Shown in pieces: positions 20,769-38,223 of a DNA stretch of 64,000 nucleotides. Origin of the DNA: a virus. Each line of letters opens with the position of its first letter. Within the stretch, counting starts at the first letter, position 1. The notes beneath the pieces were generated by a model. The model was not told the DNA's origin. It made no database searches and saw only the letters and a list, made by a program, of their open reading frames with translations. The stretch spans positions 1 through 64,000 of the IMG/VR virus record IMGVR_UViG_3300018077_000007; one strand, given 5' to 3'. A program made the translations under genes and the position numbers.

Positions 20769-21425
20769 ATGGTGACAGTGGAAACCGGGCTTGACATGAT
20801 GGAACCAACCGGAATCGGTGGTCAGGTCGTGCAGTTACAGAAGAAGTGCGGCCATTGTCGTGTGGTCAAGCCGATGGCGGATTTCCACCGAAGCCGGAAC
20901 AGATCGGACGGGAGGCAGGGGTGGTGCCGCACGTGTGGCCTTGCCTCTAAGGCCTCTCGCCGGGTACGAAAACGCCCGCTTGCTCCGCCGGGTTTGAAGC
21001 GGTGTGCGACGTGCGGAGAAACCAAGCCGGTCAGTGACTTTCGCCAACGGGTAGATGGACAACGATATGACGGCTCACATGGTGGACTCGGCCTGTATGC
21101 CTATTGCCGTCCCTGCGAACGGGCTTACAACAATGAGCGGGCTCGGGAGTTCAGCCGGACCGATCAGGGCAGGGTTGCTCGGCGCGAGAAGGTGCGGCGC
21201 GATTGTCGTGACGGGAAATATCAAGCCCGCCTCTTCGTGGCCATGTCTCTCAAGTATGGCTATCTCACGAAAGGCCCTTGTGAGGTCTGCGGCAGCGCCC
21301 GGGTTCACGCCCACCACACTGACTACAGTGACCCACTCAACGTTCGATGGCTTTGCCCGACCCATCACGGGCAGCTTCACACGGGCACCTTCACCATCAC
21401 GGCACACAAGGAGACGGTCGGATGA
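20769..21425 (+). CDS. Zinc-finger HNH-like endonuclease
   Basis: Two C..C...KP..DF...C..C modules, then PCEVCG...HAHHTDYSDPLNVRWLCPTHH; start uncertain. Confidence 0.8.
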   Translation: MVTVETGLDMMEPTGIGGQVVQLQKKCGHCRVVKPMADFHRSRNRSDGRQGWCRTCGLASKASRRVRKRPLAPPGLKRCATCGETKPVSDFRQRVDGQRYDGSHGGLGLYAYCRPCERAYNNERAREFSRTDQGRVARREKVRRDCRDGKYQARLFVAMSLKYGYLTKGPCEVCGSARVHAHHTDYSDPLNVRWLCPTHHGQLHTGTFTITAHKETVG

Positions 21426-22378
21426 AAAGATTCGCCATGACGCATCGACGGGTTTCGCGCAGTCTCGCGGCGGCCCTCGCCGCCGTCCTGCTCCTCGGGC
21501 CGGGGTGGTTCGGGTCCCTCGGGCTCACCCAGGTCCAGGCCCAAACGCAACGCTACTGGTGGTCGGTCGTGAACGAGCGCGGGGAGGTCTACCCGCAGGG
21601 GGCCGTCACGTGCTCGGTCCACCCGCATAACATCGCCTCCGAGGGCACCCACGTCTATTCCACGATGGGGAGCCCCGGCAGCGGGACCACGAGCCCGCTC
21701 GTCAGCAATGCCCAGGGGGTCTTTGAGTTCTTCTGGACCTCGGCCTCGGCCAGCTTTGATGTCGTGTGCGTCGGGCGGGGTGGCATGACGCGGCAGAAAA
21801 TGACGGACAACACGATTCATCTCCTGATGATGGATCGCTCTGGGGTCCGTCGCGTGTCCCGCTTCGCCTTCCACAACGCGGCCGGGACCGGGAACGCAGG
21901 CCAGATCGGAACCGACGTGGTGATCCCGCAGGGCGGTGTCATCCGCGATGTCATCGTGAACGTGACCTCGTGGGGGCGCGGCATCTCGCAGCATCTCAAC
22001 ATCGGGTTTGCAGGCAACCACGCGGTCTCGACCATGACCGCCCTTGCCGACGGGCTCAACCTCAGTAGCCACGGCGTGGGGTGGATTCGGCCCCATGCCA
22101 TCGCGACGGCGGGATTTGGCAACGTGTTGGCCGGCAACCACCGCGGCGGGGCACTCTCGCGGTTCCACCAATCCATCTGTTTCGGTGGCGTGTGTAGCGG
22201 CATCACCACGGCCGGCGGCATTTCACTCTATCTGGAAACGCCGTACCTCGTCCATCTCGCCGGTGGCCTTCAGGTGACCTATCAGATTTCGCTGAACCCC
22301 GACACCATCGCGGGCCACGCCTACATCTTGTGGGATCAGCTTCATATCGGGGCGAACCGCTGGAGCACGGTGGACTAG
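21422..22378 (+). CDS. Putative structural/decoration protein with signal peptide
   Basis: AAGGAG RBS; basic N-region, hydrophobic core, VQA|Q cleavage-like site; beta-rich and His-rich; follows the MCP. Confidence 0.65.
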   Translation: MKRFAMTHRRVSRSLAAALAAVLLLGPGWFGSLGLTQVQAQTQRYWWSVVNERGEVYPQGAVTCSVHPHNIASEGTHVYSTMGSPGSGTTSPLVSNAQGVFEFFWTSASASFDVVCVGRGGMTRQKMTDNTIHLLMMDRSGVRRVSRFAFHNAAGTGNAGQIGTDVVIPQGGVIRDVIVNVTSWGRGISQHLNIGFAGNHAVSTMTALADGLNLSSHGVGWIRPHAIATAGFGNVLAGNHRGGALSRFHQSICFGGVCSGITTAGGISLYLETPYLVHLAGGLQVTYQISLNPDTIAGHAYILWDQLHIGANRWSTVD

Positions 22379-22469
22379 CCCCGAAGCATAGCGAGTCCGG
22401 TGCGAGCACACCGCAGAGGCGGGTCGGGGGAGAGGCCCCCGGCCCGTCTTGGGTGATTGAGGAGGGACG

Positions 22470-23987
22470 ATGCGCGAAGCGTGGACACTGGCCCCCCGAT
22501 GGGTGCTGAGTCTCACCGAGCGGCATGTGGCGCTCGGGGTCTGGATGGCCCTCGGGGTGCTGGTGGTCGTGCCGTTCCCGGTGCACAACTGGCCGATGGT
22601 GGAGCGGGCGGTCCCGATCATGTGGCTCCTCCTGGGCGGAGCTGTCTGTCTCTGCGCCAAGCTCGCCCTGCCGACGGTGCCCGGCCTGCATCGGGTGGCG
22701 TGGCCCTTGGCGGCATTGATCGCGTGGGCCTTGATCCGGGCGGGGATGATGGCGTTTCCGCTCCGGGCGTTGCAACTGCTCCTCCTGCTGGGCATGGCCG
22801 GGATGCTGTCAATGGCGGCCCGCACGCTTGATCCACGAGAGGTCCGGTGGGTGGCGTGGGCGATGTTCGCGGGCATCGCGTATGAGGCCATCCTGGGCCT
22901 CGTGAATATCACGCCACTCCTCTCGCCGCTGTGGCGGATGGCGCTGCTCGGGGTGTGGGCACCGTTCATCTGGGCGGGCCTCGTCATCCTCATGGTGGTC
23001 AGCGTGGTCCGGTCTGGATGGCCGCCGAGTCGATTCCACCTGGCGGGCCTCTGGGCGGGGGCGGTCGGCGTCGGCCTGTGGTGGATCGTGCGAGACGTGA
23101 CCGTGATGGCTGGCCCCTACCCCTACATGACGTTCGTGGAGCCCGCGTACTTCGGCAAACCGATGGGCTTTCTCACACACACCAACTATTTTGGCTCCCT
23201 GATGGCCCTCGGCCTGCCGCTGGTCTGGTCGCTGGTGGGGCTCCTCCCAGCAGCCGCTCTCTATGCCCTCATCATCACGTCCTGGTCCGGAGGGCCGATC
23301 ATTTCGGCCTCGGTTGGGGCCATCCTGATGGCGTGGCCGAGTCTGTCGCGTCGGTGGCGGGCGGTCCTGGTCGGCGTCTGCGTGGCCTCCGTCGGGTGGG
23401 TGATGACGGTCCATGAGTGGCGGCTTTCGGGGCGCTGGCAGGTGTGGCAGGCGATCTGGCCCGAGGTGAAACGGTATCCCCTGATCGGGCAGGGGCTCGG
23501 GTCCTGGCGCATCTGGGCCGACAACTACAACGTCAAACTCTCGGTCGCGGCCAACAAGCCCGTCGTGTTCGCCACTCTCCAAGCCCACAACGAAGCCTAC
23601 CAACTCTGGTTCGAGCTGGGGCTGATCGGGCTCGGGTTGGGCCTCGCGTGGGTGCTCTGGCTTGGGCGCGATGCGTGGCGGCTCTGGTGGGCCTGCCCAG
23701 CGGGCACCCCAGAGTTTTGGTCCCCGGGGCACGTCCCGCTCGACCGGGCCTGGATCGCCATGATCGCGGTGGCGGTGGTCAACTCGTTCGGGAGCCCGAT
23801 CTTTCACCTGCCCGGGCAAACCGTTTTTGTGCTGTTTGCGATGGCCCAAATGCAGGCGTCAACGGCGCGGCTTGCAGCGCTGACGCCAGACCCAGGATCC
23901 GACAACGGCACGGGATCGTCCCGCGCCCAACGGAGGCACGTCCATGGCACCCATCCCCGAAGACATCGCCCAGTCGTTGCCGCTTAA
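22470..23987 (+). CDS. O-antigen ligase / O-oligosaccharyltransferase family (Wzy_C) polytopic membrane protein
   Basis: More than 10 TM helices; GFLTHTNYFGS, SGRWQVW...YPLIGQGLGSW, QAHNEAYQLWFELGLIG, SPIFHLP. Confidence 0.82.
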   Translation: MREAWTLAPRWVLSLTERHVALGVWMALGVLVVVPFPVHNWPMVERAVPIMWLLLGGAVCLCAKLALPTVPGLHRVAWPLAALIAWALIRAGMMAFPLRALQLLLLLGMAGMLSMAARTLDPREVRWVAWAMFAGIAYEAILGLVNITPLLSPLWRMALLGVWAPFIWAGLVILMVVSVVRSGWPPSRFHLAGLWAGAVGVGLWWIVRDVTVMAGPYPYMTFVEPAYFGKPMGFLTHTNYFGSLMALGLPLVWSLVGLLPAAALYALIITSWSGGPIISASVGAILMAWPSLSRRWRAVLVGVCVASVGWVMTVHEWRLSGRWQVWQAIWPEVKRYPLIGQGLGSWRIWADNYNVKLSVAANKPVVFATLQAHNEAYQLWFELGLIGLGLGLAWVLWLGRDAWRLWWACPAGTPEFWSPGHVPLDRAWIAMIAVAVVNSFGSPIFHLPGQTVFVLFAMAQMQASTARLAALTPDPGSDNGTGSSRAQRRHVHGTHPRRHRPVVAA

Positions 23988-24585
23988 GCGCGGGCCGGGG
24001 CGCCCCGCCCGCCCGGTCCAGTCCGGTCCGCCTCCCGAGGAGGCGGACGGCCCCGCCGTGGCCGTCGCGGTGGCCCCCGTCGGGGTGGACCTAAGCGGGT
24101 TCGTCTCCATCGAGCAGCAGATCCTCGCCCCGGTCCTGCCGGTCATCACGGATGCCAAGGGCCAGGGGGCCATTGTGGTGTATCTCGGGGCGGGGGATCG
24201 GTACTCTTGCGCCAAGCCCGGCAAGGTCGTGCGCGAGTCCTATGAAATCGCCCCCAACGAGTTTGAGATCCACTATTCCGTGTCCGAAGCCGGCATGGAA
24301 GCCCATGTGTTCGAGAGCCGGGATCTGGTGGGACACATCGTCTCCTCCCGGATCGTGGGCAGTACGGCGCCCCCGGCCGTCCAGGGACGCCCCTTTTGCC
24401 GATGCGCCCATCCCGAACACCTCCGGCTGTTCATGCGGGAGGTCGATGAGGCGAAGCGGCACCTTTTTCGCCTCTTCATCCCGCCCGAGGCGAACGCGGC
24501 CTTTACCCGGTACGTCCAGGAACGGGAGCGGAACATGCGGGAGCAGCAACAGTTCGAGGAGGATCTGATCCGCAACGCTTCGTAG
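23944..24585 (+). CDS. Hypothetical protein
   Basis: GGAGG RBS; KRGPGRP motif. Confidence 0.6.
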   Translation: MAPIPEDIAQSLPLKRGPGRPARPVQSGPPPEEADGPAVAVAVAPVGVDLSGFVSIEQQILAPVLPVITDAKGQGAIVVYLGAGDRYSCAKPGKVVRESYEIAPNEFEIHYSVSEAGMEAHVFESRDLVGHIVSSRIVGSTAPPAVQGRPFCRCAHPEHLRLFMREVDEAKRHLFRLFIPPEANAAFTRYVQERERNMREQQQFEEDLIRNAS

Positions 24586-24626
24586 TCACCTCTGCCCCCC
24601 GGGGCAGAACGAAAGGAGTCCATCCC

Positions 24627-24905
24627 ATGAGTGACGGGCGGTCAGTGCCTGAGAAGATTGACGGGAGCCCCTTCGTCCCGAAGGGCGACTTCGAGAACCT
24701 GAATGAAGGCCCCCCCACCGGCCCGGGGGATTTGCCCGAAGCCGAAGCCGCCGGCAAGGCGTTCGGCGGTCTGAAGCGCGGCCCGACCTATTCGACCGTG
24801 ACGGGGCCGGCGAAGGTCCCGATGCTGAAAGAGGTCGATAACCCGACTGACCTTCGGGGGTTGGAGAGCTATCCGATCACGTCGAAGGGCGGCGAGAAAG
24901 ACTGA
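24627..24905 (+). CDS. Hypothetical protein
   Basis: AAGGAG RBS following a palindrome. Confidence 0.6.
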   Translation: MSDGRSVPEKIDGSPFVPKGDFENLNEGPPTGPGDLPEAEAAGKAFGGLKRGPTYSTVTGPAKVPMLKEVDNPTDLRGLESYPITSKGGEKD

Positions 24906-24917
24906 TCCAGAGGCTCC

Positions 24918-25274
24918 ATGCGGCGGCCCTGGCCCGGGTTCCTCGTGGGGGGGTGCGTGACCGTGGTGCTGGTGGCCACGGCCCTCGCCCAAGGGTTGCC
25001 GACGCGCCGGACGGCGACCTGGCGAGTGATCTGTACCGCCACGACCAGCCATGCCGTGGCCAGCCGGGATCGCCCCCGGGCCGTGACGTTCGGCAACATG
25101 GGGACGATCACCCTCTATCTCGGCAGTTCGGATGACGCCGTCCCCCGGATCACGCTTCATGCCGGGGCCACGCGGGCCTACACCAACACCTTTGCCGGGT
25201 TCGTGTGTGGCACGGCGGGCGAGTACGGCGGCACGGGGTCTACCACCTTGGAGGTCGAAGAGGAGCTCCCTTGA
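24918..25274 (+). CDS. Small structural-type protein with signal peptide
   Basis: MRRPWPGFLVGGCVTVVLVATALA|Q; beta-rich body. Confidence 0.6.
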   Translation: MRRPWPGFLVGGCVTVVLVATALAQGLPTRRTATWRVICTATTSHAVASRDRPRAVTFGNMGTITLYLGSSDDAVPRITLHAGATRAYTNTFAGFVCGTAGEYGGTGSTTLEVEEELP

Positions 25275-26164
25275 AGAAGTTCCCCTGGAGGCTTGTGGTG
25301 GCGGTCCTCGGGGCTGCGGGCCTCCTCCTGGGAGCCACGGTCACGTACTCCCCGTATCGCCCGACCGGGCCGGTAGTCTTCCAGCCCGGCTCGGTCACGG
25401 TGCCGCAGGTGACCGGCACCACCGGCCTCTTCAGCGGCCTCTACTGGCCGCTTGCGAACCATCTCGGCGTCACAATCAGCGGCCATGAAGCCGTCCGGTT
25501 TCACGGGACGGCCCTGACGCTTCACCACACCACGGCTCTCCGATTCACCCACTCTGAAGCCCAGATGCACGGGGGCCAGCGGAGCCACATCACGGCCCTC
25601 CGGATCAGCACCGTTGGGGCGGCGTCCAGCACCGATCCTGACGGGAACGACCAGCTCGTGGTGGGCCATGCCAGCACGGTGCTCCGGTTCGAGACCATTG
25701 GGGGGGAACTCTTCCGCCTCCACGCAGGCGGACTCATGGCGGTGGCCAACGGCTCGTGGACGATCGGCACGTCCGCTGGCAGCCGCCCGAACGCCATCCA
25801 TGTCCAAACCTCAATTGAGGCCCGCCAGTTCATCGCCCGGATTCACTCGACCACCATCGCCTCGGAGGGGACGGCGGCGGTCAATATTGAGCGGATTAAC
25901 CCCTCTCGGGACTATATCGAGTTGACCTGTAACGATGCCAATGGGTGCACGATTGTCATGGTGATCGGGGCCGATGCGGATGGCGGCGGCCTAGTCGCGG
26001 GGACCCGCGTCACGTTCGCTAACGCGGGATCGAATACCATCAACTTTTCTGATACAGCAGGCCGATCCGAACTGTCGGCAGCCTTGGCGGCGGCAGTGGA
26101 TCAAACGATCACGCTGGTCTATTCCGGCGTGAAGTGGCGAGAAGTAGGGAGATCAAGCAATTGA
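25271..26164 (+). CDS. Fibre/decoration-like protein with signal peptide
   Basis: TTG start after GAGGAG; MKKFPWRLVVAVLGAAGLLLGA; fibre-like IGTSAGSRPNAIHV; C-terminal TITLVYSGVKWREV. Confidence 0.65.
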   Translation: MKKFPWRLVVAVLGAAGLLLGATVTYSPYRPTGPVVFQPGSVTVPQVTGTTGLFSGLYWPLANHLGVTISGHEAVRFHGTALTLHHTTALRFTHSEAQMHGGQRSHITALRISTVGAASSTDPDGNDQLVVGHASTVLRFETIGGELFRLHAGGLMAVANGSWTIGTSAGSRPNAIHVQTSIEARQFIARIHSTTIASEGTAAVNIERINPSRDYIELTCNDANGCTIVMVIGADADGGGLVAGTRVTFANAGSNTINFSDTAGRSELSAALAAAVDQTITLVYSGVKWREVGRSSN

Positions 26165-26186
26165 TCGCCACCCCCGCGCCCAAGCC

Positions 26187-27257
26187 ATGACGCGCCGATG
26201 GGGTTGCTCGGTCGCCCTCCTGACCGCCGTGTTCCTGGCCGGCGTGCTCCTCGCCCAGTTGACGCCAGCCCCCGCGCAGGTCACGCCGGGGCGTCCGCAG
26301 GTCGTCAACGTCCAGCACATCAGCACGGTGGTCCACATTGCGGCAGCGGCAGCGCCGTGGCCGTTCTCAATGGCGATGGCCACGCGCTGTGTCAATACGG
26401 CGGGAACCGCGTTCGAGGCGTGCGGGGGAGGGGCCGGCGGTGGCGACGCCGTGAACGTGTTCCATCAATCGACCATTCGGCATATCTCCTCCATCACCCA
26501 CGTCGGCGGCACGATCAGCCTCGTGAACCAAGCCGGGACGTATGCGACCTTCACCGGCACCACCCTCGACGTGACGTGTACGGGATGCGCGGCGGCCTCC
26601 GTCGTGGCGGTGTCGCATATCTCCGGAGCGGTCCATATCGGGGGGACCATCGGCGGTGCCCAGTTCCATATCCAAGGGCTTGGGACTCCCGGCCAGTCGC
26701 ACGGCGGGGTGCTGTCCATTCAAGGCATTGGGGGCGGAAACCCCGTGCCGGTCATCGGGACCATCGGGCTCCCAGTGAATCAGCAGGGCGTGTGGAACAT
26801 CCAGGCGACCCATCAAGGGGGCCAATGGAACATGGCTCACGTGACCTCCGTGACCCATGTGGCGGTCACCGCATTCGGATCAACGGCGGTCGATCCATGC
26901 ATGGGGCGCTCGAAATCCTACGTCGGCATCAGCCAGACGGCGGGCACGCAATTGGTCACCGGGGTCGCCAACCAGCGGGTCTACGTTTGTTCACTCAACG
27001 TCGTGTCCGCCACCGCACAGAATTTAGCGGTTGTGGCGGGGACGGGCGTGACCTGTGCGACCACGACCGTTGGGGTGCCGGGCCTAACGGGAGGGGCGAC
27101 CGCCGCGACGGGATGGAATCTCGCGGCGAACGGCGGGTTGACGTTCGGGGCTGGAGCGGCCGCCATCGCGCAGACCACCGTCAATGGCGATTCGGTTTGT
27201 TTACTCCAGTCCGGGACCGGCCAAGTCTCGGGAGGTCTAAGTTATGTCACGCAATGA
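26187..27257 (+). CDS. His-repeat beta-rich protein with signal peptide
   Basis: Signal peptide ending APA|Q; four H-[IV]-[ST]-x-x-x-H-[IV] repeats. Confidence 0.7.
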   Translation: MTRRWGCSVALLTAVFLAGVLLAQLTPAPAQVTPGRPQVVNVQHISTVVHIAAAAAPWPFSMAMATRCVNTAGTAFEACGGGAGGGDAVNVFHQSTIRHISSITHVGGTISLVNQAGTYATFTGTTLDVTCTGCAAASVVAVSHISGAVHIGGTIGGAQFHIQGLGTPGQSHGGVLSIQGIGGGNPVPVIGTIGLPVNQQGVWNIQATHQGGQWNMAHVTSVTHVAVTAFGSTAVDPCMGRSKSYVGISQTAGTQLVTGVANQRVYVCSLNVVSATAQNLAVVAGTGVTCATTTVGVPGLTGGATAATGWNLAANGGLTFGAGAAAIAQTTVNGDSVCLLQSGTGQVSGGLSYVTQ

Positions 27258-28431
27258 GGACCACAGGGGACTCGTGGGCGTCTGGGGCCTGATCCTCTCT
27301 GCGGCTCTGCTCGTCGTGTTCTCTGCCCCGGCAGGGGCGCGCCCCATCCTCCCCGTGGCCACCTATCCTGCCGGGACACAGGCATTTGGCCCGCTCATGC
27401 TTCCGGCCACCGTGCACGATCTCGCCTTCGAGGTTGATGTCAGCGCGCACACGGATCCTGCTGCGGACCTGGTCGTCTCGGTGGACCTCTCCCGCGATGG
27501 GGGGACCACCTGGCAATTCTGGAAGGGGGTCTCTCGCCGTGGGGGAATCAAACGGCATCCCGACACGGGGCTGCCGGTCCCCCTGATGACCTCGCGCCAC
27601 TGGCTCCCGCCGGGACCGACGTGGGTCCGGGGCACCGTGACGGTAACGCACCCCCTGCAATTCGCCCTGGATCTGGAAACCGCGCAGAACGACGCCGACC
27701 CGCGCCTCCGGCCCACGGTCGCGGCTCCGGATGAGCATCGGTCCCTCTCGTTCGATACCTCGACCAACGGGGGCAACAACAACAATGTCACGAGCATCTC
27801 GTGGTCTCATACGACGGCGGCCACGGCGAAGGCCCTCGCGGTCTTCGGGTTCGTGGCGGATGGCACCGACGGCTCCCGCGACATCAGCAACGTCACCTAT
27901 GCGGCGGTGGCGATCACCAGCCTCATTGTGGACATCGACAACTCGGTGGGCAACATCGAGATGGAAGTGTGGTATCAGCTCTCCCCGACGACCGGCGCCC
28001 AGACCGTGGCCATCACGGGGAACGGCGGGGCTGGCTCGGCGGACGAGTTGACGGGGGTGGCCGTCACGCTCATTGACGATGTGGGCGCGCCCACGCTAGA
28101 CACGAGCGGGAGCGGAACCGGCAACGCGGACACTGGGAGTCAGTCCCTGACGATTGCGGACAATGCCTTCATGGTTGCGGGGATCATCACGGATCTCGCC
28201 AACCCGCTCAACCTGTCGGTGACCGTTGGGACCGAGCGGCAAGAACTGGACGTGGGCGGGCAAACGGTTGGCGGCGCGACCCGAGGCCCGCTGACCCCAG
28301 CCGGTGCCTACGCCATCACATGGGGCATCTCGGGGAATGCCGAGTTCGCCATCGGCGCGCTCTCGTTTGCCCCGGCGGTGGCGGGAGGGGCGGCGGTCCC
28401 GCTCCGGACCCTGATGGGCGTCGGGCAATAG
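27244..28431 (+). CDS. Beta-rich virion-type protein with signal peptide
   Basis: Hydrophobic N-terminus ending AGA|R; SISWSHTT-type beta domain; C-terminal RTLMGVGQ. Confidence 0.65.
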   Translation: MSRNEDHRGLVGVWGLILSAALLVVFSAPAGARPILPVATYPAGTQAFGPLMLPATVHDLAFEVDVSAHTDPAADLVVSVDLSRDGGTTWQFWKGVSRRGGIKRHPDTGLPVPLMTSRHWLPPGPTWVRGTVTVTHPLQFALDLETAQNDADPRLRPTVAAPDEHRSLSFDTSTNGGNNNNVTSISWSHTTAATAKALAVFGFVADGTDGSRDISNVTYAAVAITSLIVDIDNSVGNIEMEVWYQLSPTTGAQTVAITGNGGAGSADELTGVAVTLIDDVGAPTLDTSGSGTGNADTGSQSLTIADNAFMVAGIITDLANPLNLSVTVGTERQELDVGGQTVGGATRGPLTPAGAYAITWGISGNAEFAIGALSFAPAVAGGAAVPLRTLMGVGQ

Positions 28432-28435
28432 CGCC

Positions 28436-28717
28436 ATGTTCCCTGATCTGCACCCGTTCAGCTACGTGGAGGTGACGGTTTCGACCGACGTGGTGAGCCT
28501 GTCCGTCCCGGCGGAGACCTGCTTTGCCGTGCTCCGATTCGAGGATGGGCCGGTGCGGTATCGCGTGGATGGGGGCGCCCCCTCCACCACCGTTGGGTTG
28601 CCGGGCGAGCACGGCGATCAGCTGCCGCTCTGGTATCAATCGGTCGCCCAATTCCGCGTGATTCGGAGCGGCGGGGCGGATGGCGTGGTTCGGGCGACGT
28701 TTTATCGGAAGCGGTAA
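28436..28717 (+). CDS. Small structural-type protein
   Basis: VRYRVDGGAPSTTVG motif typical of small phage virion proteins. Confidence 0.6.
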   Translation: MFPDLHPFSYVEVTVSTDVVSLSVPAETCFAVLRFEDGPVRYRVDGGAPSTTVGLPGEHGDQLPLWYQSVAQFRVIRSGGADGVVRATFYRKR

Positions 28718-28733
28718 CCCGGAGGAGGAGGGG

Positions 28734-29332: not shown

Positions 29333-29340
29333 CAGGAGCT

Positions 29341-29973: not shown

Positions 29974-29981
29974 GATAAGCC

Positions 29982-30881
29982 ATGGCGTTCGATGCGTATA
30001 CGACGGCCGAGGCGTATATCCTCGACCGGGTGGGCGAGGATGGGACGGTCACGACCACTATGCTGGCCTCGCTCGCGAGGGATTTTTTGATCGCGCGGTG
30101 GCGGGATCTGGTGCTCCGCTTCCCCTGGATCGGGCTGACCAAGACCCCCCCCGGGATTTTTTTAACGAGCGATGACATCAGCACCCTCACCATTACCGTG
30201 GCCGCGACGGGGATCGCCGCGGCCGGGACGCTCTCGGCGGCCCCGGCGGGGAGCCTCTCGCTTGTGGACTACAAGATGCGCCCGACCGGCAAGGACTGGG
30301 TGGCCCGGGTGACGGTCCATGCGGCGGATGGCACGGCGGTCACGCTCGATGCCGTCCCCGAAACCCTCGCGGCGGGATCCGCCATCACGCTTTTTCAGGA
30401 TGAATACACGTTGGCCTCTGATGTGGCCCTCTTCATTGATGGCCTGTGGACCCAGGAGGGGAACTTTGTGGCCCTCGTGGGCGAGGAGGAGTTGAAGGCG
30501 AAGTGGCCGGATCCGCCGGCCTCGGGGTATCCGCCCGAAGCGTTTGCTCGGCTGACGATGCGCCGCGTGCGGCTGTCGTCCTATCCCACGGCCCTGAAAC
30601 GGATCGAGTATCCCTATACCCGCATGCCCGCCGATCCCTCGGGCAGCGGCACCGTGGACTTGCCGAGTCAGTTACGCACCGTCTGGGTGGAATTGGCCCT
30701 GGCCGATCTGCTGGATGAGAAGTACGACCGGCGAGCGCATCCGGTGTTGCTCAAGGCCGAGGGCAAACTGGAGCAGTTGATCGGGCTGGAATCCCGGTTT
30801 CGGATGGGCGAGGGGATGCTGTCGCACGGGACGCGGGTGGCCCCGTATGGAGATGTGAAGCGGGGAGGGTACGGCTCTTGA
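29982..30881 (+). CDS. Head-tail adaptor / tail tubular A-like protein
   Basis: QDEYTLASD, G.P..F...VRL..YP, YPY.R.P motifs; located upstream of the nozzle gene. Confidence 0.65.
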   Translation: MAFDAYTTAEAYILDRVGEDGTVTTTMLASLARDFLIARWRDLVLRFPWIGLTKTPPGIFLTSDDISTLTITVAATGIAAAGTLSAAPAGSLSLVDYKMRPTGKDWVARVTVHAADGTAVTLDAVPETLAAGSAITLFQDEYTLASDVALFIDGLWTQEGNFVALVGEEELKAKWPDPPASGYPPEAFARLTMRRVRLSSYPTALKRIEYPYTRMPADPSGSGTVDLPSQLRTVWVELALADLLDEKYDRRAHPVLLKAEGKLEQLIGLESRFRMGEGMLSHGTRVAPYGDVKRGGYGS

Positions 30882-32103
30882 CATCCTCCACCGGATTGAA
30901 GTCCGGGGATTCCAACACCGACGCCACCCGGAAGGAGGCGCGGCATTGAGGTTCGCGGTTCACTGCCCGGCGGTGCTGCACCAAGGCTCCCCGCGCTGGC
31001 ACGGCCTGTCCGGCCGCGATGTTACGTGCTGCATTGGTATCGGCATGGCAGTGGAACCCGCAGACTACGCAACGGAAGCTCGCTTGGCTCTCACGAGACG
31101 CCGCCGCGACATGCCCGCACTCGCTGCACTGCTGGCTGGTGTACCTCGGGTCAACTCGGCGAACTCTCCCGTGCGCTTTGTGTTCAAGGCGCGTGAGGAA
31201 CAGGCCCCAGCCTTGCGCCAAGATGCTGCGGTTGAGGCCGGCCTTTTGCGCGACATTCCGACCGGGCGTTTGGAGGGTGCCGTGCGCCGAGCGCGTCATG
31301 GCACCGACGTTGAGATTCTCGACCTTCAGGACATCGTAGCGGCGGGCGAGGCTCGTGGTCGTCTGCTCCACCCAGTCCTTGCGGCGGGCCGTCTCGTGGG
31401 CTCGGAGCCGGGCGATGGCACGCTTGACCCGTCGCCGACGGTTCGAGCCCCGCTGGGCGCGGGCGAGGCGGCGCTGGAGCCGGAGGAGGCGCTCCGCTTC
31501 CTTGGGCCGCAGGACAGGCGCGTGGAGGCTCTCGCCTTCACTCGTCATCACGCTGACGGCGACTCCACGGTCAAGGCCAACGATCTCGCCCGTCCCTGGG
31601 CCGGGGAGGGGTGCCGGGATGTGGGCGAAGGCAATGTGCCAGCGGCCTGCGGGATCGCGCGTCACGCGGTACGATTTTACGCATGGAATCGGCCTCGTCT
31701 GTCGAAAGCGCACCCAGCCGATCTTCGGCACGAAGAGCGCCGTATGACGACGGTTCAATCGCCGCACATGACTGGGTTGAAGCGCGACGATGCGGAAGCC
31801 CTCGTCACGATCCCGCTTGCGCCACGTCGGGCGCCGGTGAGTGCCCCCGAAGAAGTTCCGTTTGGCTTGGTCGAAGTCTCGGAGTGCCTGCTGCTGGACG
31901 ATGACGCTGCCCTCGGCGAGCCATGGTTCAGCCGCACGCAACTCCGTGAGTTGCCGGCTCAATTCGGCGTAACCGGGCGCTGTCTTTCCCGGTTGCCAGA
32001 GTCGCCACTGCTCCAAACAGAGGTTCCAGAGAAACCGCGCCTGACCGCAGGCGTTTACCAGCATGGGCTCTTGTTCACGGGAGGGGTACAGGCGAAAGCG
32101 CAT
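30751..32103 (-). CDS. tnpB: TnpB RNA-guided endonuclease
   Basis: RFRLYPS HTH, RuvC-I GLDRG, RuvC-II VENL, zinc finger CSECG..CVVCG, RuvC-III HADTNAARNI. The ORF reads through the right end into flanking DNA. Confidence 0.93.
   Translation of the reverse strand: MRFRLYPSREQEPMLVNACGQARFLWNLCLEQWRLWQPGKTAPGYAELSRQLTELRAAEPWLAEGSVIVQQQALRDFDQAKRNFFGGTHRRPTWRKRDRDEGFRIVALQPSHVRRLNRRHTALFVPKIGWVRFRQTRPIPCVKSYRVTRDPAGRWHIAFAHIPAPLPGPGTGEIVGLDRGVAVSVMTSEGESLHAPVLRPKEAERLLRLQRRLARAQRGSNRRRRVKRAIARLRAHETARRKDWVEQTTTSLARRYDVLKVENLNVGAMTRSAHGTLQTPGRNVAQKAGLNRSILAQGWGLFLTRLEHKAHGRVRRVDPRYTSQQCSECGHVAAASRESQASFRCVVCGFHCHADTNAARNIAAGQAVPARGALVQHRRAVNREPQCRASFRVASVLESPDFNPVEDVKSRTLPASHLHTGPPASRATASPRPSETGIPARSTAPVCPRP
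30858..31030 (-). ncRNA. Predicted TnpB omegaRNA (scaffold plus guide)
   Basis: Inferred from known TnpB biology: the scaffold overlaps the tnpB 3' end and right end, and the guide is the flank (GAGCCGTACCCTCCCCGCTT). The 5' boundary is approximate. Confidence 0.55.
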
Positions 32104-32232
32104 TTAGGCGCGCCTGAGGTAGGCATCGACCGCCCGGCGGATCAGTTCGGCCACCGTCAGGCCGGTGGTCTCGGCGAGCCGCCGCAGCAGGGTGAGTTGC
32201 CGCTCGGTCAGATGGAAGTTGACGCGCTGCAT
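32104..32232 (-). CDS. CopG/ribbon-helix-helix protein (42 aa)
   Basis: MQRVNFHLTERQLTLLRRLAETTGLTVAELIRRAVDAYL; directly abuts tnpB. Confidence 0.85.
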   Translation of the reverse strand: MQRVNFHLTERQLTLLRRLAETTGLTVAELIRRAVDAYLRRA

Positions 32233-32238
32233 ACCCCG

Positions 32239-32267
32239 AGTATACACACTCACGTTGGGCGTGTCCA
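32239..32267 (-). promoter_or_regulatory. Promoter for the RHH-tnpB operon (leaderless)
   Basis: Minus strand: TGGACA-N17-TATACT-N6-ATG. Confidence 0.6.
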
Positions 32268-32327
32268 CCCACACACGGCGCTTCCTCCCCGCGCTGAAGC
32301 GCAGGGTTTCCGCGCCGGGAGCATCCG

Positions 32328-32588
32328 ATGAGCGTGACGGCATGGATTCCGGTGGTTCTGCTTGTCGCGCAACTCTTAACGCCCTATTCGCCAGAAATGG
32401 TCAAGGAGTTTGAAGCCATCCCGATTGGGGAAACTCGGGATGTGGCCTTCCCACAAGGTGACGGTTGTAATTCGTGTACGTGCCCGGTCCACCGGACCTC
32501 GGAAACGCATATCAAAGTCGGCAACTCTTGCCGCTGCACCCTCGTGAATTGTCGTCCGCTCTTTTCGCCGGAGATCCCGTTCAAATGA
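32328..32588 (+). CDS. Small secreted Cys-rich protein (pacifastin-like pattern)
   Basis: Hydrophobic N-terminus; DGCNSCTC...CRCTLVNC. Confidence 0.55.
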   Translation: MSVTAWIPVVLLVAQLLTPYSPEMVKEFEAIPIGETRDVAFPQGDGCNSCTCPVHRTSETHIKVGNSCRCTLVNCRPLFSPEIPFK

Positions 32589-33151
32589 CGACATGGGTGG
32601 GTGCTCTGGTCAGGATCGTCGTTGGAGGGCTCGTCTTCGCGAGCCTCTCTCTCCCAGGCCCCCTCATGGCCCATCCCGGGCGATTGGACGCGAAGGGTTG
32701 CCACCATGTCGAAACGAAGTTCGTCTATAAGTCGGGAAAGGTCGCCGAAGTGGGAGACTCTCATTGCCATCGCTCTCTTGGCGACATGCGGCTTGACGGC
32801 CTCGAAGTGCTCCAACAACCGCCGCTTGGCTTCCTGGAGTCGATTCCCTCGTCGCCGATCCCTCCCTGCTGGCCTGCGGGGGTGCCGTCCGTGAATCAGT
32901 GGACGCTCCACCGGGCCGAGATGCGCGAGGCGGATGGGCATACCTGGCTCGGGGCGCATTACCGATTGCCCTCGGGGCAGATGCTCTCGGCGGTGTGGCT
33001 GGATGGCGAGATCGTGGCCATCGACCCTGATCCCGCCGGCCCGGTGCCCATGTGGATTCAGGCAGGCCGCGTCGAAATCCGGGACGGGGGACCGCACCGG
33101 TTGCGGCGAATCGAGCCCCCCGGGCCGTGCCGGTGGGAGCGGTGGCCATGA
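32585..33151 (+). CDS. YHYH-like domain secreted protein
   Basis: Signal peptide followed by AHPGRLDAKGCHH...SHCH. Confidence 0.6.
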   Translation: MTTWVGALVRIVVGGLVFASLSLPGPLMAHPGRLDAKGCHHVETKFVYKSGKVAEVGDSHCHRSLGDMRLDGLEVLQQPPLGFLESIPSSPIPPCWPAGVPSVNQWTLHRAEMREADGHTWLGAHYRLPSGQMLSAVWLDGEIVAIDPDPAGPVPMWIQAGRVEIRDGGPHRLRRIEPPGPCRWERWP

Positions 33152-33492
33152 GCGAACTCCGCTGGACCCTCACCGTGCCCGAACCGACCCGGTCCTGGGA
33201 TGAATGCCGCTTGGCCGCCGTGGAGTTTCGGTTTCCGGCTGACGCCCCGCCGGGCGTGACGCTCCGGTGGGAGCGGCGCCAGGGTGGCCAGATTGTGCAA
33301 GCGGATGGACTCGCCCTCGCGTGGGCGGAGATGGGGGATCCCACAGCCCTCTTGACGGCGTTGCTGGATTGGGCGACGGACCGGATGAAGACGGCGGGGG
33401 TCCTGCCCAGGGCCGCCGTGAAAGAACTCGGGCCAACACCCGAGAAGCCCGTGCCGGCGGCGGTGCCGGAACCGGGGATCACGCTGCGATGA
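33148..33492 (+). CDS. Hypothetical protein
   Basis: ATGA-coupled ORF. Confidence 0.5.
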   Translation: MSELRWTLTVPEPTRSWDECRLAAVEFRFPADAPPGVTLRWERRQGGQIVQADGLALAWAEMGDPTALLTALLDWATDRMKTAGVLPRAAVKELGPTPEKPVPAAVPEPGITLR

Positions 33493-33718
33493 GAACCCTG
33501 CCCGTCACGTATCCACGAGACCCCGAGACGCCAGGCGCGGCGATCCGCCCCTGCGTCCGCTGTCATCTCGATTTCTTGGCAGTGGCGGTGGCGGATCTGA
33601 GCGCCCTGGATCCCGCACTGTCGCGCTTCCCTGATCTCTGTGTCGGCTGCCGGGTCCTTGAGGCCCGGATGCTCCCTGACCGCCCATTGCCCATGTGGGC
33701 CACGGGGATATAGCGGTC

Positions 33719-35278
33719 ATGCCCTACGACGGCATTCCGGTGATCGAAATCCAACTTGGAGGCGAAGGGCTCTGGGGGGTGAGAAATCGTGGGCTCATCC
33801 CACAAAGCGCCCTCATCCAACTCAGAAATGCCACCCTCGAAGACCACTCGGTGCGCTCCGGTGGCGGGGCCACGAAACTCGGCGACGCCATCGGGGCCGT
33901 CACGCTCCAGGCCGCCATTGACTACTGGCCGGCGGTCACGACGCAACGGACCCTCGTGTCCGTCGGGGACGGGACGCTGCGGAAGGACACGGGGAGCGGG
34001 GCCGGGTGGTCCACCCTGGCCAGCGGGTTGACGACGTCGGGGCAAGTGGCGATCTGGGTGCCCGGGGGGGCCGAAAGCACCGGACGGGATCGGAAGGCGT
34101 TCCACGTCGATGGGGTGAACGCCGTGCAGGTGCTGGCGGCGGATGGGGCCGCGACCGCTGCGCTGGCGAGTCCGCCGGCGGCGTGGGCCGGGGCCAACCA
34201 ACCGCGCACGCTGTTTGTCCACCAAGCGTATCTGTTCGGCGGGGGCTCGCCGAATGACCCCCACCGGCTCCACCGGAGTTTGAACACCAACCATGAAGAC
34301 TTTCTGACGACGCCCTATTCGCTCCTGATTGATCCCGGTGCCGAATTCGGGGAATACATCGCCGCTGGGACCACCTTCAAAGGCGGCGCCATCATCTGGA
34401 AATTCCCGGAGGGCGTGTTTTTCATCGACACCTCCGACGTGGCGACCCCGGCGAACTGGCGCGTGATCCGCGTGGGGCGTCCCGGCATTGCGGGGCCGCT
34501 CTGTTGGGCCGCCGTGGAAGATGATCTGATCTGGGTCTCGCCCGACGGGTCCTGGCATCTCCTGAGCGCCACCCAAGCCACCGGGAGCGTGAAAGCATCG
34601 GATATTTCCACGCGCAAGCTCGGGAGCTTCTTCCGGGACAACGTGAACTTGGCCCAACTCGCCACGGCCCAGATGATCTACTACGCCAACAAGGGCGAGA
34701 TTCAACTGGCCTGCCACGGCCAGGGCCAGACGGCCAAGAACCGGCGGTTTCATATTGATCGCAACAAGCTCACGGATGAGCGGTGGATCTACTGGGACCG
34801 GGATCGGAATGAATCGCTCTTCCTCCGCAAGCGCTCGGGCATCCAAATCCCCGCCATGGGGGATAACGCCGGGCAGGTGTGGGAACTGGACCGGGTGGCC
34901 CGAAGTGCCGACGGGGTCGCCTACACCTTTGAATGGTGGCTCCGGGATCTCGACTTTGGGGAAGTGGTGCGCGGGTGGCGCGGGCGCAAAACCAACGGGC
35001 GGTTTTTGCAACTGGAATATGACGCCCGGGATAGCGTGACCCATGCGGTGGAGGTCTATCGAGACGGCACCTTGTCCCAGACGATCAACTTTGTGCTGGA
35101 CGGCGGGGCCGGAACGCTGCCCTTCACCCTCCCGATCACGTTTGGGGTCGGGGGGTTGCGCATCTCGCGCCCGCAACGGCTGCTCGGCCAGGCGCAACGG
35201 TGGAGCTTTCGGGGCCGCACGACGACGGCGAGTGATACGTCGATCACGCGACTCCTGATCGGGGCGGAGGCGGCATGA
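33719..35278 (+). CDS. Tail nozzle / tail tubular protein B-like (beta-propeller)
   Basis: About 520 aa, beta-rich; L.NA.L, RL..S..., WKFPEGVF; typical podovirus position. Confidence 0.7.
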   Translation: MPYDGIPVIEIQLGGEGLWGVRNRGLIPQSALIQLRNATLEDHSVRSGGGATKLGDAIGAVTLQAAIDYWPAVTTQRTLVSVGDGTLRKDTGSGAGWSTLASGLTTSGQVAIWVPGGAESTGRDRKAFHVDGVNAVQVLAADGAATAALASPPAAWAGANQPRTLFVHQAYLFGGGSPNDPHRLHRSLNTNHEDFLTTPYSLLIDPGAEFGEYIAAGTTFKGGAIIWKFPEGVFFIDTSDVATPANWRVIRVGRPGIAGPLCWAAVEDDLIWVSPDGSWHLLSATQATGSVKASDISTRKLGSFFRDNVNLAQLATAQMIYYANKGEIQLACHGQGQTAKNRRFHIDRNKLTDERWIYWDRDRNESLFLRKRSGIQIPAMGDNAGQVWELDRVARSADGVAYTFEWWLRDLDFGEVVRGWRGRKTNGRFLQLEYDARDSVTHAVEVYRDGTLSQTINFVLDGGAGTLPFTLPITFGVGGLRISRPQRLLGQAQRWSFRGRTTTASDTSITRLLIGAEAA

Positions 35279-35287
35279 GCCGGCCGC

Positions 35288-36265
35288 TTACAGGAGCCGC
35301 TGTGTCTTTCTCCGCCGGGGCACGTACCCATAAGGATTGGGACCGTGATGCTTCCCCTCAAGGATGAGCGAGACGGTTGCCCGGCTGACCCCGTGGCGTT
35401 GCGCGAGCCAGTGATGGGGGGCGTCTGGGTTATCGGCGGCATCGCGACGGAGCGCATCGACTTCGGGCGCGAGGAGGTTTCTGTAGGAAGGGCGAACGCG
35501 CAATCCTTTGGGCATCGGGACGTGCTTCCACGTCTGCCCTCGGATTACGTCGCTAATGTGTTGGCGGGAGACGCCAATTTGATCGGCCAAGGTAAAAATC
35601 GTTTCCCCGCCCTGCATGTACCGCCGACGAATGTCAACCACAAGACTTTCGTTCAACTTCACCGTTGTCCCACGCACGCGGGTTCCTCGGATAGGACGGA
35701 GTTCTATAGCGGCCCCGCCCGCGTCGCGACGCCCTCTGCGCTTCAAAATCACGCTAATGTGGTTCTTCGATACTCCGTAGGTGCGGGCGAGATCCGCGGC
35801 CGTCACGTTCAGGTTTGTCGCGTAGGTATCTCGGATGGCGCACACCTGCGCGTCCGTCAACTTCGCCGAATGGTGCCGCTCGCCCCGCGCCCGCAGAATC
35901 GGCGGGGGCAGAGTGTTGTTCATCACCCGTGGAAGCGGCGGGGCTGGAGAGTGGCGGCGGTCGGCCATGTTGTCCTGAGCCGACCCAGGCCGAAGATGTT
36001 CTGGATTCACGCAGGGCTTGTTCGAGCAAGCATGGAGGATGAACAGGCCAGGCGGAATTGGCCCGTTCGCCAGTTCCCAGGCGATGCGGTGGGCCAGTTC
36101 ATAGCGGGTGGCCCGTCCACGAGGCGAGGTCACCGTTACCGCGACGGTGCCGTATCCTTCTCGTCGGTCATGGGCGGCTCCGTGCCAGATCCAGCACGTG
36201 GGCGTTTTTTCAATTCTCGCCCAGTACGCTGCGAGGTCGATATGCCCGCCCTGGAGATTCTCCAT
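35288..36265 (-). CDS. HNH homing endonuclease with repeated C-terminal HTH modules
   Basis: CWIWHG...GYG...AHRIAW...ILHACSNKPCVNPEHL..GSAQDN; GERHHSAKLT..QV..IR; three LA..YGVS-type HTH repeats. Confidence 0.9.
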   Translation of the reverse strand: MENLQGGHIDLAAYWARIEKTPTCWIWHGAAHDRREGYGTVAVTVTSPRGRATRYELAHRIAWELANGPIPPGLFILHACSNKPCVNPEHLRPGSAQDNMADRRHSPAPPLPRVMNNTLPPPILRARGERHHSAKLTDAQVCAIRDTYATNLNVTAADLARTYGVSKNHISVILKRRGRRDAGGAAIELRPIRGTRVRGTTVKLNESLVVDIRRRYMQGGETIFTLADQIGVSRQHISDVIRGQTWKHVPMPKGLRVRPSYRNLLAPEVDALRRDAADNPDAPHHWLAQRHGVSRATVSLILEGKHHGPNPYGYVPRRRKTQRLL

Positions 36266-36306
36266 GAGTAGCCGATCCTTTCTTCAGTTACGGAGTCGTT
36301 GCATTC

Positions 36307-36335
36307 ATTGTTGTATACCAACTTCTGTTTGTCAA
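36307..36335 (-). promoter_or_regulatory. Putative promoter for the reverse-strand HNH gene
   Basis: TTGACA-N17-AACAAT on the minus strand. Confidence 0.45.
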
Positions 36336-36386
36336 GCTCGGTGTATCGGGTCCGCACGGACTCACACAGAAAGGAGGTGATGCCCA

Positions 36387-37961
36387 ATGACAACCACGTG
36401 GAAACACTCTATAGCAATGATCTTTTGCTTGGTTGTGGTCTTCGCGTGGCTATCCCCGGCTGCTGGACAGGGTTCCTGCTCGATTTTCAGATCCTGGAGC
36501 GCCGGGGATCAGTAACGGCTAACCGCTGCTGATTTGACCACCTCGATGACGACCCTGGGCGTCACGAATATGCTCGTGAATTGCCTGGACTCGTGGTCCA
36601 ACTCGGACGCCCAGATGCAGACCACGACCTCGCCGTTCACCACCGCGATCTCGCGTCCGAGCGGGCTCGACGGCGAAGTGGAACGGCTCCGGTACATGTG
36701 GTCCCACGTGATGGGCTATAGCCAGTGGTATCGGCATGACGAGAACCTCCAGTTGCGGGATCGCATGGTGGCGAACCACCGGGGGGCCTTGACCTCGGCG
36801 GGCGAAGGGCTCTACCGAGGGCAGGCCACGCTAGGCGCGAACCTCCGGTACCACGCCGTCAGCTACGGGTTTGAAAACCAGGGCGCGCACCACGAAACGG
36901 CGCTCATGCTGATCCACGTGGGCGCGACGGCCCGGTTCATGGTCTCGCTCGGCGGCGATGTCCACGCCCTGTCCACGATGGCGACCGGCCCGGGGGCGCA
37001 ACGGTTCCCGGCCTACGCGACGGCGCGGTGGCATGGGACGGGTCTCTGGTTCCCCTCGGACGGGCAACTCGGCATTTCGGTCGGGGGCGATAGCCCGTAT
37101 CGGTTCCACGCCACGGGCTTCATGGCCCACGCGATCCTCTTCATGCACGCCGGATCGGGGCAATACACCGCGTTCGTCGCCCACGCCAATTCCTCGGTGA
37201 CGCGCACCTACCGGCTCCCGCAGACCTTCGGGACGCAGGGGCAGGCGTTGGCGATGGGGCCAAATGCCGGAGGCTTTGCGGATCTGGAATGGACCAACGT
37301 TGCCATCGCCCTACCAGTATCAGTCGCCAGTGGCGGCACCGGCCTTACTTCGGGCACTTCGGGCGGGATTCTCGGATTCACGGCATCGGGGACGCTCGCC
37401 TCGTCAGCCGCCTTGACCGCCAACGCCCTTGTCCTGGGCGGCGGGGCCGGGGCCACTCCGACCGTGCTGGGGTCTCTCGGCACGACGACGACGGTGCTGC
37501 ATGGCAACGCGGCGGGTGCCCCGTCGTTCGGTGCCGTGAGCTTGTCCGCCGACGTGACAGGCAATCTTCCCGTCGCCAATTTGAATAGTGGAACGGGGGC
37601 GGGTGCCACGACGTTCTGGCGCGGGGATGCAACCTGGGCGACAGCCTCGTCCCTCGAAACGGGCGTCTACGTCAACGAGACGGGCGTCAAGGTGGCCGGG
37701 ACGATTTACCAGAACACGAGCGGGCGCAAGCGACGGGTCTATCAAAACGTCGAGGGGGCTGGCTCAGGGAAGCTCAGCGCTCTCGTGGAGGTCGGGACTG
37801 CCTCGCCTCCGACGATTGCCATTGCCAATCTGATTATCGATGTCAATGCAGCGGCGGTCAACCACTCACTGCCCGTCTCCTATGAGGTGCCCAACAATAA
37901 TTACTACCGCCTCACTATCACGACGGGGAGTGTTACGCGGTGGGTGGAAATTGATGAATAG
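36387..37961 (+). CDS. Tail fibre-like protein with signal peptide, interrupted by an in-frame TAA at 36513-36515
   Basis: AAGGAGGTGA RBS, ATG at 36387 and a signal peptide, all in the same frame as ORF 36534-37961. Fibre motifs [11 protein letters not shown] and [12 protein letters not shown]; C-terminal gp53-like YQNTSGR...VPNNNYYR. Confidence 0.7.
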
Positions 37962-38223
37962 TCAACTATCCCGAAGGCTCCGCCTCTGGGGTTCTCTCCT
38001 GATCGCGGGATTCTGCGCCTTTTCCCCAGTGGGGGCTCTCGCTCAACCCCCGCCGTTGTCCTGTGAGGACCAACTCCGCACCGTGCGGGTCTATGCCGAC
38101 ACGCTCAGCAACGTCCGCCAGCGGATCGAACTGGACGCCGCCCAAACGATTGCGACGCTGTTGAAGCGGATCGAGCAACTTCAGGCGGAAGTCACGGCCC
38201 TGAAAGGCACGAAAAAGGAGTAG
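37954..38223 (+). CDS. Small secreted coiled-coil protein
   Basis: Signal peptide ending ALA|Q followed by a coiled coil. Confidence 0.6.

Follow-up and report, generated by a model that had tools for sequence, protein, structure and literature searches.

Tailed-phage particles are held to assemble wholly in the cytoplasm, and virion glycosylation in mycobacteriophages is the work of cytoplasmic glycosyltransferases. The O-oligosaccharyltransferases TfpO/PilO and PglL are Wzy_C-family enzymes that are encoded beside their Sec-exported pilin substrate and use lipid-linked glycans at the periplasmic face; an accessory domain, PglL_A, is found in the PglL type and not in all O-transferases. Here we describe a gene pair in which an enzyme of the Wzy_C superfamily follows a leader-bearing protein resembling a capsid cement protein. 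The pair belongs to a Bcep22-type podophage of freshwater sediment and lies in its structural operon, within bases 1-64000 of the single 84,523-bp virus record IMGVR_UViG_3300018077_000007. This whole stretch of 64,000 nucleotides is called the window, and proteins are named by the first position of their gene in it. The cement-like gene (21422) and the gene of the WaaL-fold enzyme (22470, called the ligase below) form a conserved two-gene cassette, and several further proteins of the same module begin with predicted export leaders.

As in the TfpO/PglL systems, the gene of a polytopic Wzy_C-family enzyme here adjoins that of a predicted Sec-exported protein, but that protein is a cement-like jellyroll of a phage, encoded in a late structural operon. 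Unlike PglL, the enzyme has no PglL_A domain at E ≤ 0.1 and no sequence relative in the PDB. The outcome would resemble that in mycobacteriophages, namely sugar-bearing capsid or tail proteins. In contrast to their cytoplasmic route, however, no gene of glycosyltransferase families 1 or 2 (GT1, GT2) was found in this phage, so that any glycan would come from the host, by a lipid-linked route in the periplasm. The 21422 protein shares with the solved cement proteins of phages GP4, Pam1 and KHP40 a jellyroll (Z = 8.7-10.6), a predicted trimer and a gene placed after a Phage_capsid_3 capsid gene, and differs from them in its predicted cleavable leader and an extra N-terminal β-sandwich. The GP4 protein has 157 amino acids (aa) and forms trimers on a T=9 capsid, according to an excerpt of PMC9698820. 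In Bcep22 the gene slot of the 21422 protein is occupied by gp56, a leaderless 157-aa virion protein. Temperate phages are known to have conversion genes of the Wzy_C family, such as D3 Wzy-beta and VarioGold VG_p25; beside the latter lies the gene of the leader-bearing VG_p26 (PMC9658991, in excerpt). The VarioGold pair is the closest printed parallel found, but it sits in a moron cluster beside an integrase and opposite to the late genes, whereas the genes described here belong to the late operon of a phage with no integrase found; an hhalign comparison of the ligase with VG_p25 gave 0.4%, with no detectable homology. In the full-text literature, supplementary files excepted, we found no paper on tailed phages in which cement or fibre proteins with leaders are coupled to a Wzy_C enzyme.

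An alignment of 14 homologues of the 21422 protein (A2) shows a leader in every one of them, though the leader sequence itself diverges. It is followed by an invariant Gln (Q41) right after the predicted cleavage site and by a conserved mature start, xYFWW. Cys64 is invariant and Cys116 nearly so. Export by the twin-arginine translocation (Tat) pathway was considered and rejected, as no twin-arginine motif is common to the homologues. The AlphaFold2 (AF2) model, with a predicted local distance difference test (pLDDT) score of 67.4, consists of two β-domains. When the model was compared with 48,161 PDB representatives (VIA), the best match of the jellyroll was chain H of the cyanophage Pam1 capsid (7eel_H; Z = 10.6, root mean square deviation (r.m.s.d.) = 2.6, 116 residues), followed by the Ralstonia phage GP4 capsid (8h89_J; Z = 8.9) and the trimeric cement protein of KHP40 (7dou_4; Z = 8.7). 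A transthyretin/CnaB-like sandwich (Z = 9.6) makes up the N-terminal domain, and a BFVD search with the model returned small unnamed viral proteins. Three copies of residues 138-318 were predicted as a trimer with a score of 0.81, against 0.02 for the best of three controls, with a contact agreement of at least 58% and a partner pLDDT of at least 72. Of proteins solved as same-chain pairs, 20 of 30 attain this mark, as does one of 23 solved as single chains; similar trimers are already solved, so this result may reflect likeness only and not binding. The gene directly follows the capsid gene in 8/8 viral loci, the window differing only by an HNH gene in between. In its model, the 21422 protein thus resembles a counterpart of the trimeric capsid cement proteins.

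The earlier note on this DNA had assigned 22470-23987 to the O-antigen ligase family, and both the fold and a family match at threshold agree with this. The Pfam model Wzy_C (PF04932) scored 31.4 bits by hmmscan, 0.3 short of the cut-off of 31.7, and 35.4 bits, above the cut-off, in a six-frame search; it is the sole Pfam family at E ≤ 0.1. The ligase model (pLDDT 73.7, predicted TM-score (pTM) 0.75, about 14 helices) finds in WaaL (7TPJ/7TPG) its best and clearly separated match. For chain 7tpj_B, 326 of 403 residues were aligned with Z = 20.1 and r.m.s.d. = 5.0; unlike this fold, the sequence is only 13% identical and gives no hidden Markov model (HMM) match to the solved one. SEDS proteins come next (Z = 11-12.8), and the top row of a Foldseek search is again WaaL (7tpg_B). 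The HMM comparison with WaaL, PglL and Wzy that had been suggested therefore bears out membership of the Wzy_C family, and neither the accessory domain of PglL nor sequence kinship with WaaL. We collected 95 homologues at E ≤ 1e-3, of which 72 carry a precomputed PF04932 tag and many lie on contigs of 86-93 kb. Across 18 aligned sequences, R99, R126, H237, H315, R322, R347, H373, E375 and H446 are invariant, which includes a QAHNE motif. Relatives on viral contigs were found by an alignment-based scan, a single-protein scan having found none. NCBIfam models gave no match to the enzyme, and a tblastn search of 50,697 phage records, with the ligase and the cement-like protein as queries, returned nothing. 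A scan of a species-representative genome collection with the ligase profile (A1) found no relative; the scan is pattern-based, so absence from these genomes is not proven by it. The ligase copy of this phage alone carries a two-helix insertion of about 66-70 aa (residues ~146-215, window 22905-23115), which none of the 17 aligned homologues has, not even one with 86% identity. The insertion is in frame, its GC content at third codon positions (GC3) equals that of the rest of the gene, and it is neither a repeat nor present in a second copy in the genome.

The order capsid gene, leader-bearing cement-like gene, ligase gene recurs in 8/8 viral loci (loci are numbered with the prefix L). The ligase profile retrieved 75 metagenome loci, 33 of them with at least 1000 nt upstream, and 33/33 of the latter have a cement homologue upstream in the same orientation. 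Of these 33 homologues, 31 were found to have a leader; one gene runs off its contig, and in L162 none was found. The 31 leader-bearing sequences correspond to 23 distinct ones at 95% identity and to 11 clusters at 50%. A search based on the capsid protein added further loci. Both the cement-like gene and the ligase are absent from two sister phages, L056 and L057 (capsid 53-54% identical), and a 176-aa protein that follows the capsid gene in L056 has no detected similarity to A2 or to gp56. L067 and L070 (capsid 36-38% identical) have a leader-bearing cement homologue (hhalign 81% and 92%), after which comes a divergent polytopic Wzy-like protein (95.7%, E = 9e-9, and 71%, E = 3.6e-5, against the ligase profile). 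In L077 (capsid 33% identical) the cement slot holds a homologue (hhalign 97.4%, E = 9.5e-12) that starts directly at the mature domain; it has no leader and no Cys pair, and no ligase follows it. Across the loci examined, neither a leader-bearing cement homologue nor the enzyme was thus seen in the absence of the other. The co-occurrence that the earlier note had put forward as a check on its proposal is accordingly borne out for the cement-like/ligase pair. It does not extend to all exported proteins, as the fibres of L056 and L057 have no ligase beside them.

Some loci elaborate on the cassette. In L002 (9300-9950) and L001 (9301-9963) a methyltransferase-like gene (Methyltransf_23, E = 3e-4, below the cut-off) stands between the cement-like gene and the ligase, and seven metagenome loci (L089, L102, L110, L116, L126, L140, L150) have gaps of 600-1074 nt at the same place. 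On the small contig L005, two leader-bearing cement-like paralogues (1110-2075 and 3356-4177) flank the ligase.

Leaders were called from translations read by eye and from crude heuristic scans. The seven signal-peptide-like N-termini listed in the earlier note all read as leaders for Sec and signal peptidase I (SPase I), with an n-h-c pattern and a small-x-small site. Predicted cleavage falls at VQA↓Q in 21422, ALA↓Q in 24918, APA↓Q in 26187, AGA↓R in 27244, AAG↓Q in 36387 and ALA↓Q in 37954. The leader of 25271, whose TTG start overlaps the preceding stop, has the weakest site of the set, and by the crude scans the site of 27244 is weak as well. An eighth leader, in 32585 (LMA↓H), can be added. 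The scan flags 9/27 genes of the structural module here against 3/24 in that of Bcep22, and we take the three Bcep22 genes, weak fibre N-termini, as false positives. A basic n-region, a hydrophobic h-region and a small-x-small c-region are kept among orthologues. Core particle proteins are leaderless: the portal, the capsid protein, the conserved tail proteins, the ejection proteins and the giant protein. The carriers of leaders are outer parts, namely the cement homologue, the tail fibre, further fibre-like proteins and a coiled-coil protein encoded after the fibre. Cysteine follows the same division. It is nearly absent from the large leaderless virion proteins, with one Cys in 695 residues of the portal, two in 4968 of the giant protein and none in the proteins of 530 and 565 aa, whose genes precede that of the giant protein. 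The leader-bearing proteins have 2-9 Cys each, and the conserved pairs among them (A2 and the tip-domain alignment A3) are an extracytoplasmic sign. Judged from these patterns, the predicted leaders are genuine features, conserved in orthologues, and the proteins that bear them are very probably exported.

Most predicted sites expose an N-terminal Gln, which directly follows the site at window positions 21542, 24990, 26277 and 38041. Because the leader scan gave a bonus to Gln at position +1, the claim for Gln is drawn from the A2 alignment only. Among the Acidobacteriota loci described below (within L010-L055), Gln is exposed by 9/29 heuristic leaders against 4% Gln overall, in a small and biased sample. 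The pattern recalls the Q-rule of Bacteroidetes, as given in excerpts of PMC5837995 and PMC10653852 and, for genes of Porphyromonas phages, of PMC10367356. Here it would be a Q-rule-like habit outside Bacteroidota; the excerpted text of PMC5837995 contains no mention of Acidobacteria that we could find.

The body plans that the earlier note had called decoration- or fibre-like also hold: 21422 is cement-like, 26187 ends in a fibre-tip domain, 25271 matches parts of relatives' fibres, and 36534 is the fibre itself. The small protein that had been counted at 36387 does have a leader, but it is not a separate protein; it is the leader of the fibre, cut off by an in-frame TAA. The severed piece matches the N-termini of relatives' fibres, and leader and fibre form one open reading frame (ORF) in L002, L003, L007, L056 and L057. 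The split site (36387-36540) contains six extra bases relative to an L007-type reading. The fibre body, whose C-terminal motif matches phage records, could start at TTG 36534 or ATG 36546, and no ribosome-binding site is evident before either. Contigs carrying the stretch come from four freshwater-sediment sequencing runs (X1-X4), two of which may be its source. Over the severed leader, the X1 and X2 contigs match the window letter for letter, and no letter differs among the pieces listed from the four runs, the listed X3 and X4 pieces not being shown to cover the exact stop codon. There is no tRNA gene in the window, and hence no suppressor for the TAA was seen there. The stop may be read through, translation may re-initiate after it, or the fibre may be defective. 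A conserved Cys after the fibre leader was considered as part of a lipobox, and this was rejected because the residues preceding it vary.

Between 24918 and 28431 the leader-bearing genes vary in number and kind among relatives. L006 and L007 have positional analogues of 24918, with leaders and with no detected similarity to it. The Cys-rich tip domain of 26187 (window 26859-27254) belongs to a very large unnamed family, with 2285 representative proteins at E ≤ 1e-3, and its nearest Atlas clusters are viral. Of ten fetched proteins with this domain, eight start with what looks by eye like a typical leader, one has a longer hydrophobic stretch at its start, and one lacks a leader. The domain occurs in 46 genome loci (L010-L055), 41 of which are Acidobacteriota by title if Korobacteraceae, which we take to belong there, are counted in. 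Tip-domain proteins starting with MRIKIIG may be prophage or tailocin fibres of Acidobacteriota, and we use the genome distribution of the domain as a lead to the host only. The 27244 protein has no family match in Pfam, PHROG or NCBIfam. In L070 (10653-13940) a 1095-aa protein with a leader-like start follows the conserved module gene.

Table 1. Features of the window referred to in the text, in order of position.
Feature	Coordinates	Strand	Basis or remark
Terminase	70-2493		
P22-type portal	15485-17572		Pfam E = 2.3e-82
Major capsid protein, no leader	19747..20748	+	Pfam Phage_capsid_3 E = 3.2e-35; PHROG 334 E = 2.5e-60
HNH-type endonuclease between capsid and cement-like genes	20769..21425	+	PHROG 2340 endonuclease E = 1.8e-30
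Leader-bearing cement-like protein	21422..22378	+	Predicted leader 1-40, β-sandwich ~43-139, jellyroll ~140-307
Polytopic WaaL-fold membrane protein, Wzy_C superfamily, phage-specific branch	22470..23987	+	Pfam Wzy_C; WaaL fold
Conserved module protein, no leader	23944..24585	+	Homologues in 6/8 viral loci, also in the ligase-free L056 and L057
Small leader-bearing protein, 118 aa	24918..25274	+	Translation and crude scans; no Pfam or PHROG family match
Fibre-like protein, N-terminal leader or anchor, TTG start	25271..26164	+	Residues 54-167 match inside L002 and L003 fibre ORFs, 34-35% identity
Leader-bearing fibre-like protein, His-rich repeats and C-terminal tip domain of ~125 aa with 4 invariant Cys	26187..27257	+	Alignment A3
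Leader-bearing protein, C-terminal domain like viral hypothetical clusters	27244..28431	+	Atlas TM 0.82-0.87 by row, residues 165-393
Conserved tail or neck module protein, no leader	29982..30881	+	39-47% identity in L001-L003, L006, L007; also in L056, L057
TnpB (IS605 OrfB)	30751..32103	-	Pfam OrfB_IS605 E = 4.5e-16; Cas12f1-like_TNB E = 1.7e-18
Extra leader-bearing protein next to the TnpB element	32585..33151	+	LMA↓H; translation and crude scans
Conserved large tail-module protein, no leader	33695..35278	+	48-52% identity in L002, L003, L006, L007; 44-53% in L056, L057
HNH_3 homing-type endonuclease	35288..36265	-	Pfam HNH_3 E = 1.3e-14
Severed fibre leader: ribosome-binding site, leader, ~15 mature residues	36387..36515	+	In-frame TAA 36513-36515
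Tail fibre body, same frame as the severed leader	36534..37961	+	N-terminal 70 residues 42-45% identical to L002 and L003 fibres
Small leader-bearing coiled-coil protein just after the fibre	37954..38223	+	Leader-bearing homologues in L006, L007; weak coiled-coil Pfam matches only
Giant protein, 4968 aa	41529-56435		Cys count 2

The capsid protein shares about 30% identity with those of Bcep22, PEp14, SopranoGao and 933W-type phages, and the Bcep22 map has the same order of portal, capsid, small virion protein, tail, fibres, internal proteins and DarB-like giant. No integrase (PF00589) was found, and the phage looks virulent. A lipobox protein encoded at 59263 suggests a host with an outer membrane; the host is probably a member of the Acidobacteriota, living in groundwater and sediment. 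Promoter and terminator scans gave results no different from shuffles. The structural operon is interrupted by three mobile genes, two encoding HNH endonucleases and one TnpB. The stop of the first HNH gene overlaps the ATG at 21422 (ATGA), the GC3 frame plot favours the minus strand at the TnpB gene, and relatives have HNH genes in the same module at other positions. Next to the TnpB element lies a small 6-Cys protein with a hydrophobic start (32328-32588), followed by the leader-bearing 32585 protein (32585-33151); neither has a counterpart that we saw in related loci, so both may be cargo of the element.

By analogy with PglL/TfpO, we propose, tentatively and with some reserve, that the outer parts are exported, that the enzyme glycosylates the cement-like protein and that the parts then join the virions. 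In this proposal the leader-bearing proteins would be exported by Sec and fold in the periplasm, the enzyme would transfer a host glycan linked to undecaprenyl pyrophosphate to the exported cement-like protein, and the exported parts would meet DNA-filled particles once the holin opens the inner membrane. Its parts differ in strength. We lean towards the view that the enzyme acts on or with the cement-like protein. Transfer of a glycan to protein is finely balanced, with the scale tipping slightly against it, and the arrival of the exported proteins on virions is a nearly even matter, also a little on the doubtful side. It is somewhat unlikely that the lineage finishes its particles outside the cytoplasm in the full sense, with cores made inside, with Sec-exported cement, fibres and helper, with disulfides, pyroglutamate and a glycan-coated cement, and with glycan-cloaked virions as the product. 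In model phages, capsid-decoration and fibre proteins can attach in vitro to particles that are already complete, which makes late addition physically possible. Of the interpretation in the earlier note, the leaders, the virion-type bodies, the WaaL fold and the pairing of cement-like gene and ligase stand, and the tie between the ligase and every exported protein does not.

Several observations weigh against this proposal. We know of no tailed phage that adds exported proteins to its particles, and the interval from holin action to lysis is short. Few gain events may underlie the pairing, and the loci would then not count as independent cases. The cement slot of L057 contains no such gene, which shows that the clade can dispense with it, and both L056 and L057 keep leader-bearing fibres without a ligase, so the ligase is not tied to all exported proteins. 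The leader of the fibre in this very genome is severed by a stop codon, which makes it either dispensable or the fibre defective. In about 21 of the 46 genome loci the tip domain ends proteins with a conserved leaderless N-terminus (start MRIKIIG), and a leader is therefore not intrinsic to such fibres. The pLDDT of the cement model is just 67 and β-sandwich folds are common; Foldseek returned weak rows only (TM ≤ 0.27 by query), Pfam, PHROG and NCBIfam searches with the 21422 protein found no family, and no similarity between Bcep22 gp56 and the cement family was detected at the sequence level. For the enzyme, profile A1 has no sequence relative in the PDB at E ≤ 1, and the data do not distinguish a Wzy_C-type ligase from a polymerase or a protein O-transferase.

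An unlikely alternative is that the enzyme ligates or polymerises glycan on the host envelope and that the exported proteins, none of which would enter the particle, act at the cell surface or in the periplasm. They might, for example, mask receptors and so keep progeny or rival phages from being wasted on infected cells and debris. Conversion genes of the Wzy_C family are known from phages, exported exclusion lipoproteins encoded next to tail genes are known as well (T5 Llp, Cor), and the tip domain is receptor-binding in type, so that an exported copy could block receptors; that the clade can lack the cement gene, as L057 shows, also fits this explanation. So does the moron cluster of VarioGold, where the gene of a 299-aa protein with a leader precedes one of the O-antigen ligase family (PMC9658991, excerpt). 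The genes described here, however, have no detectable homology to that pair or to any phage record, and they stand in the late operon, on the strand of the capsid gene and with coupled starts. No integrase accompanies them, and the scan of species-representative genomes turned up no relative. In relatives the sole fibre beside the tail genes is leader-bearing, which would leave the particle without that fibre, and in L077 the cement slot is occupied by a leaderless homologue. Surface remodelling for exclusion, which the earlier note had offered as its alternative, is thus weakened by the late-operon position of the genes, by the lack of a detected integrase and by the fact that no prophage copy turned up.

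It is quite improbable that the N-termini do not serve export at all and are instead uncleaved tethers, assembly timers or oligomerisation helices of proteins that join the particle at or in the cytoplasm, the Wzy_C-like gene being an unrelated conserved passenger. The cytoplasm is indeed the normal place of assembly for virion proteins, a virion protein of Bcep22 is annotated as having a potential signal peptide, the cleavage sites of 25271 and 27244 are weak, and the fibre of this phage works, if at all, without its leader. Yet the n-h-c pattern and the small-x-small site are kept despite divergence, and the invariant Gln and mature start are what the evolution of a cleaved leader looks like. 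Conserved Cys pairs are confined to the leader-bearing set, and such a reading leaves the strict pairing and co-absence with an enzyme of a periplasm-facing type unexplained. There is also a slight chance that infected cells shed the proteins, for instance as adhesins, matrix binders or decoys, made from recycled virion domains and glycosylated or anchored by the enzyme. The size of the tip-domain family, the typical leaders seen by eye in eight of its ten fetched members and the differences between relatives in the number and kind of genes in 24918-28431 would suit released goods of this sort, but there is no sign of secretion past the periplasm, and the cement-like protein and the fibre each occur as a single copy and correspond by synteny to parts of the particle.

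What emerges is a lineage with dozens of members in groundwater and sediment that has kept export leaders on the counterpart of a cement protein and on fibres. If these proteins stay off the particle, the lineage would have put virion proteins to a second use, in an exported late-gene system that also includes a new, phage-specific branch of the O-antigen-ligase superfamily. On either reading, the cement-like/ligase pair is a compact enzyme-substrate candidate that is directly testable. If the proteins do join the particle, virion maturation would include a new step and phages would have a new way of becoming glycosylated, which would bear on host recognition, on evasion of immunity or grazing, and on the phage display of glycosylated proteins folded in the periplasm.

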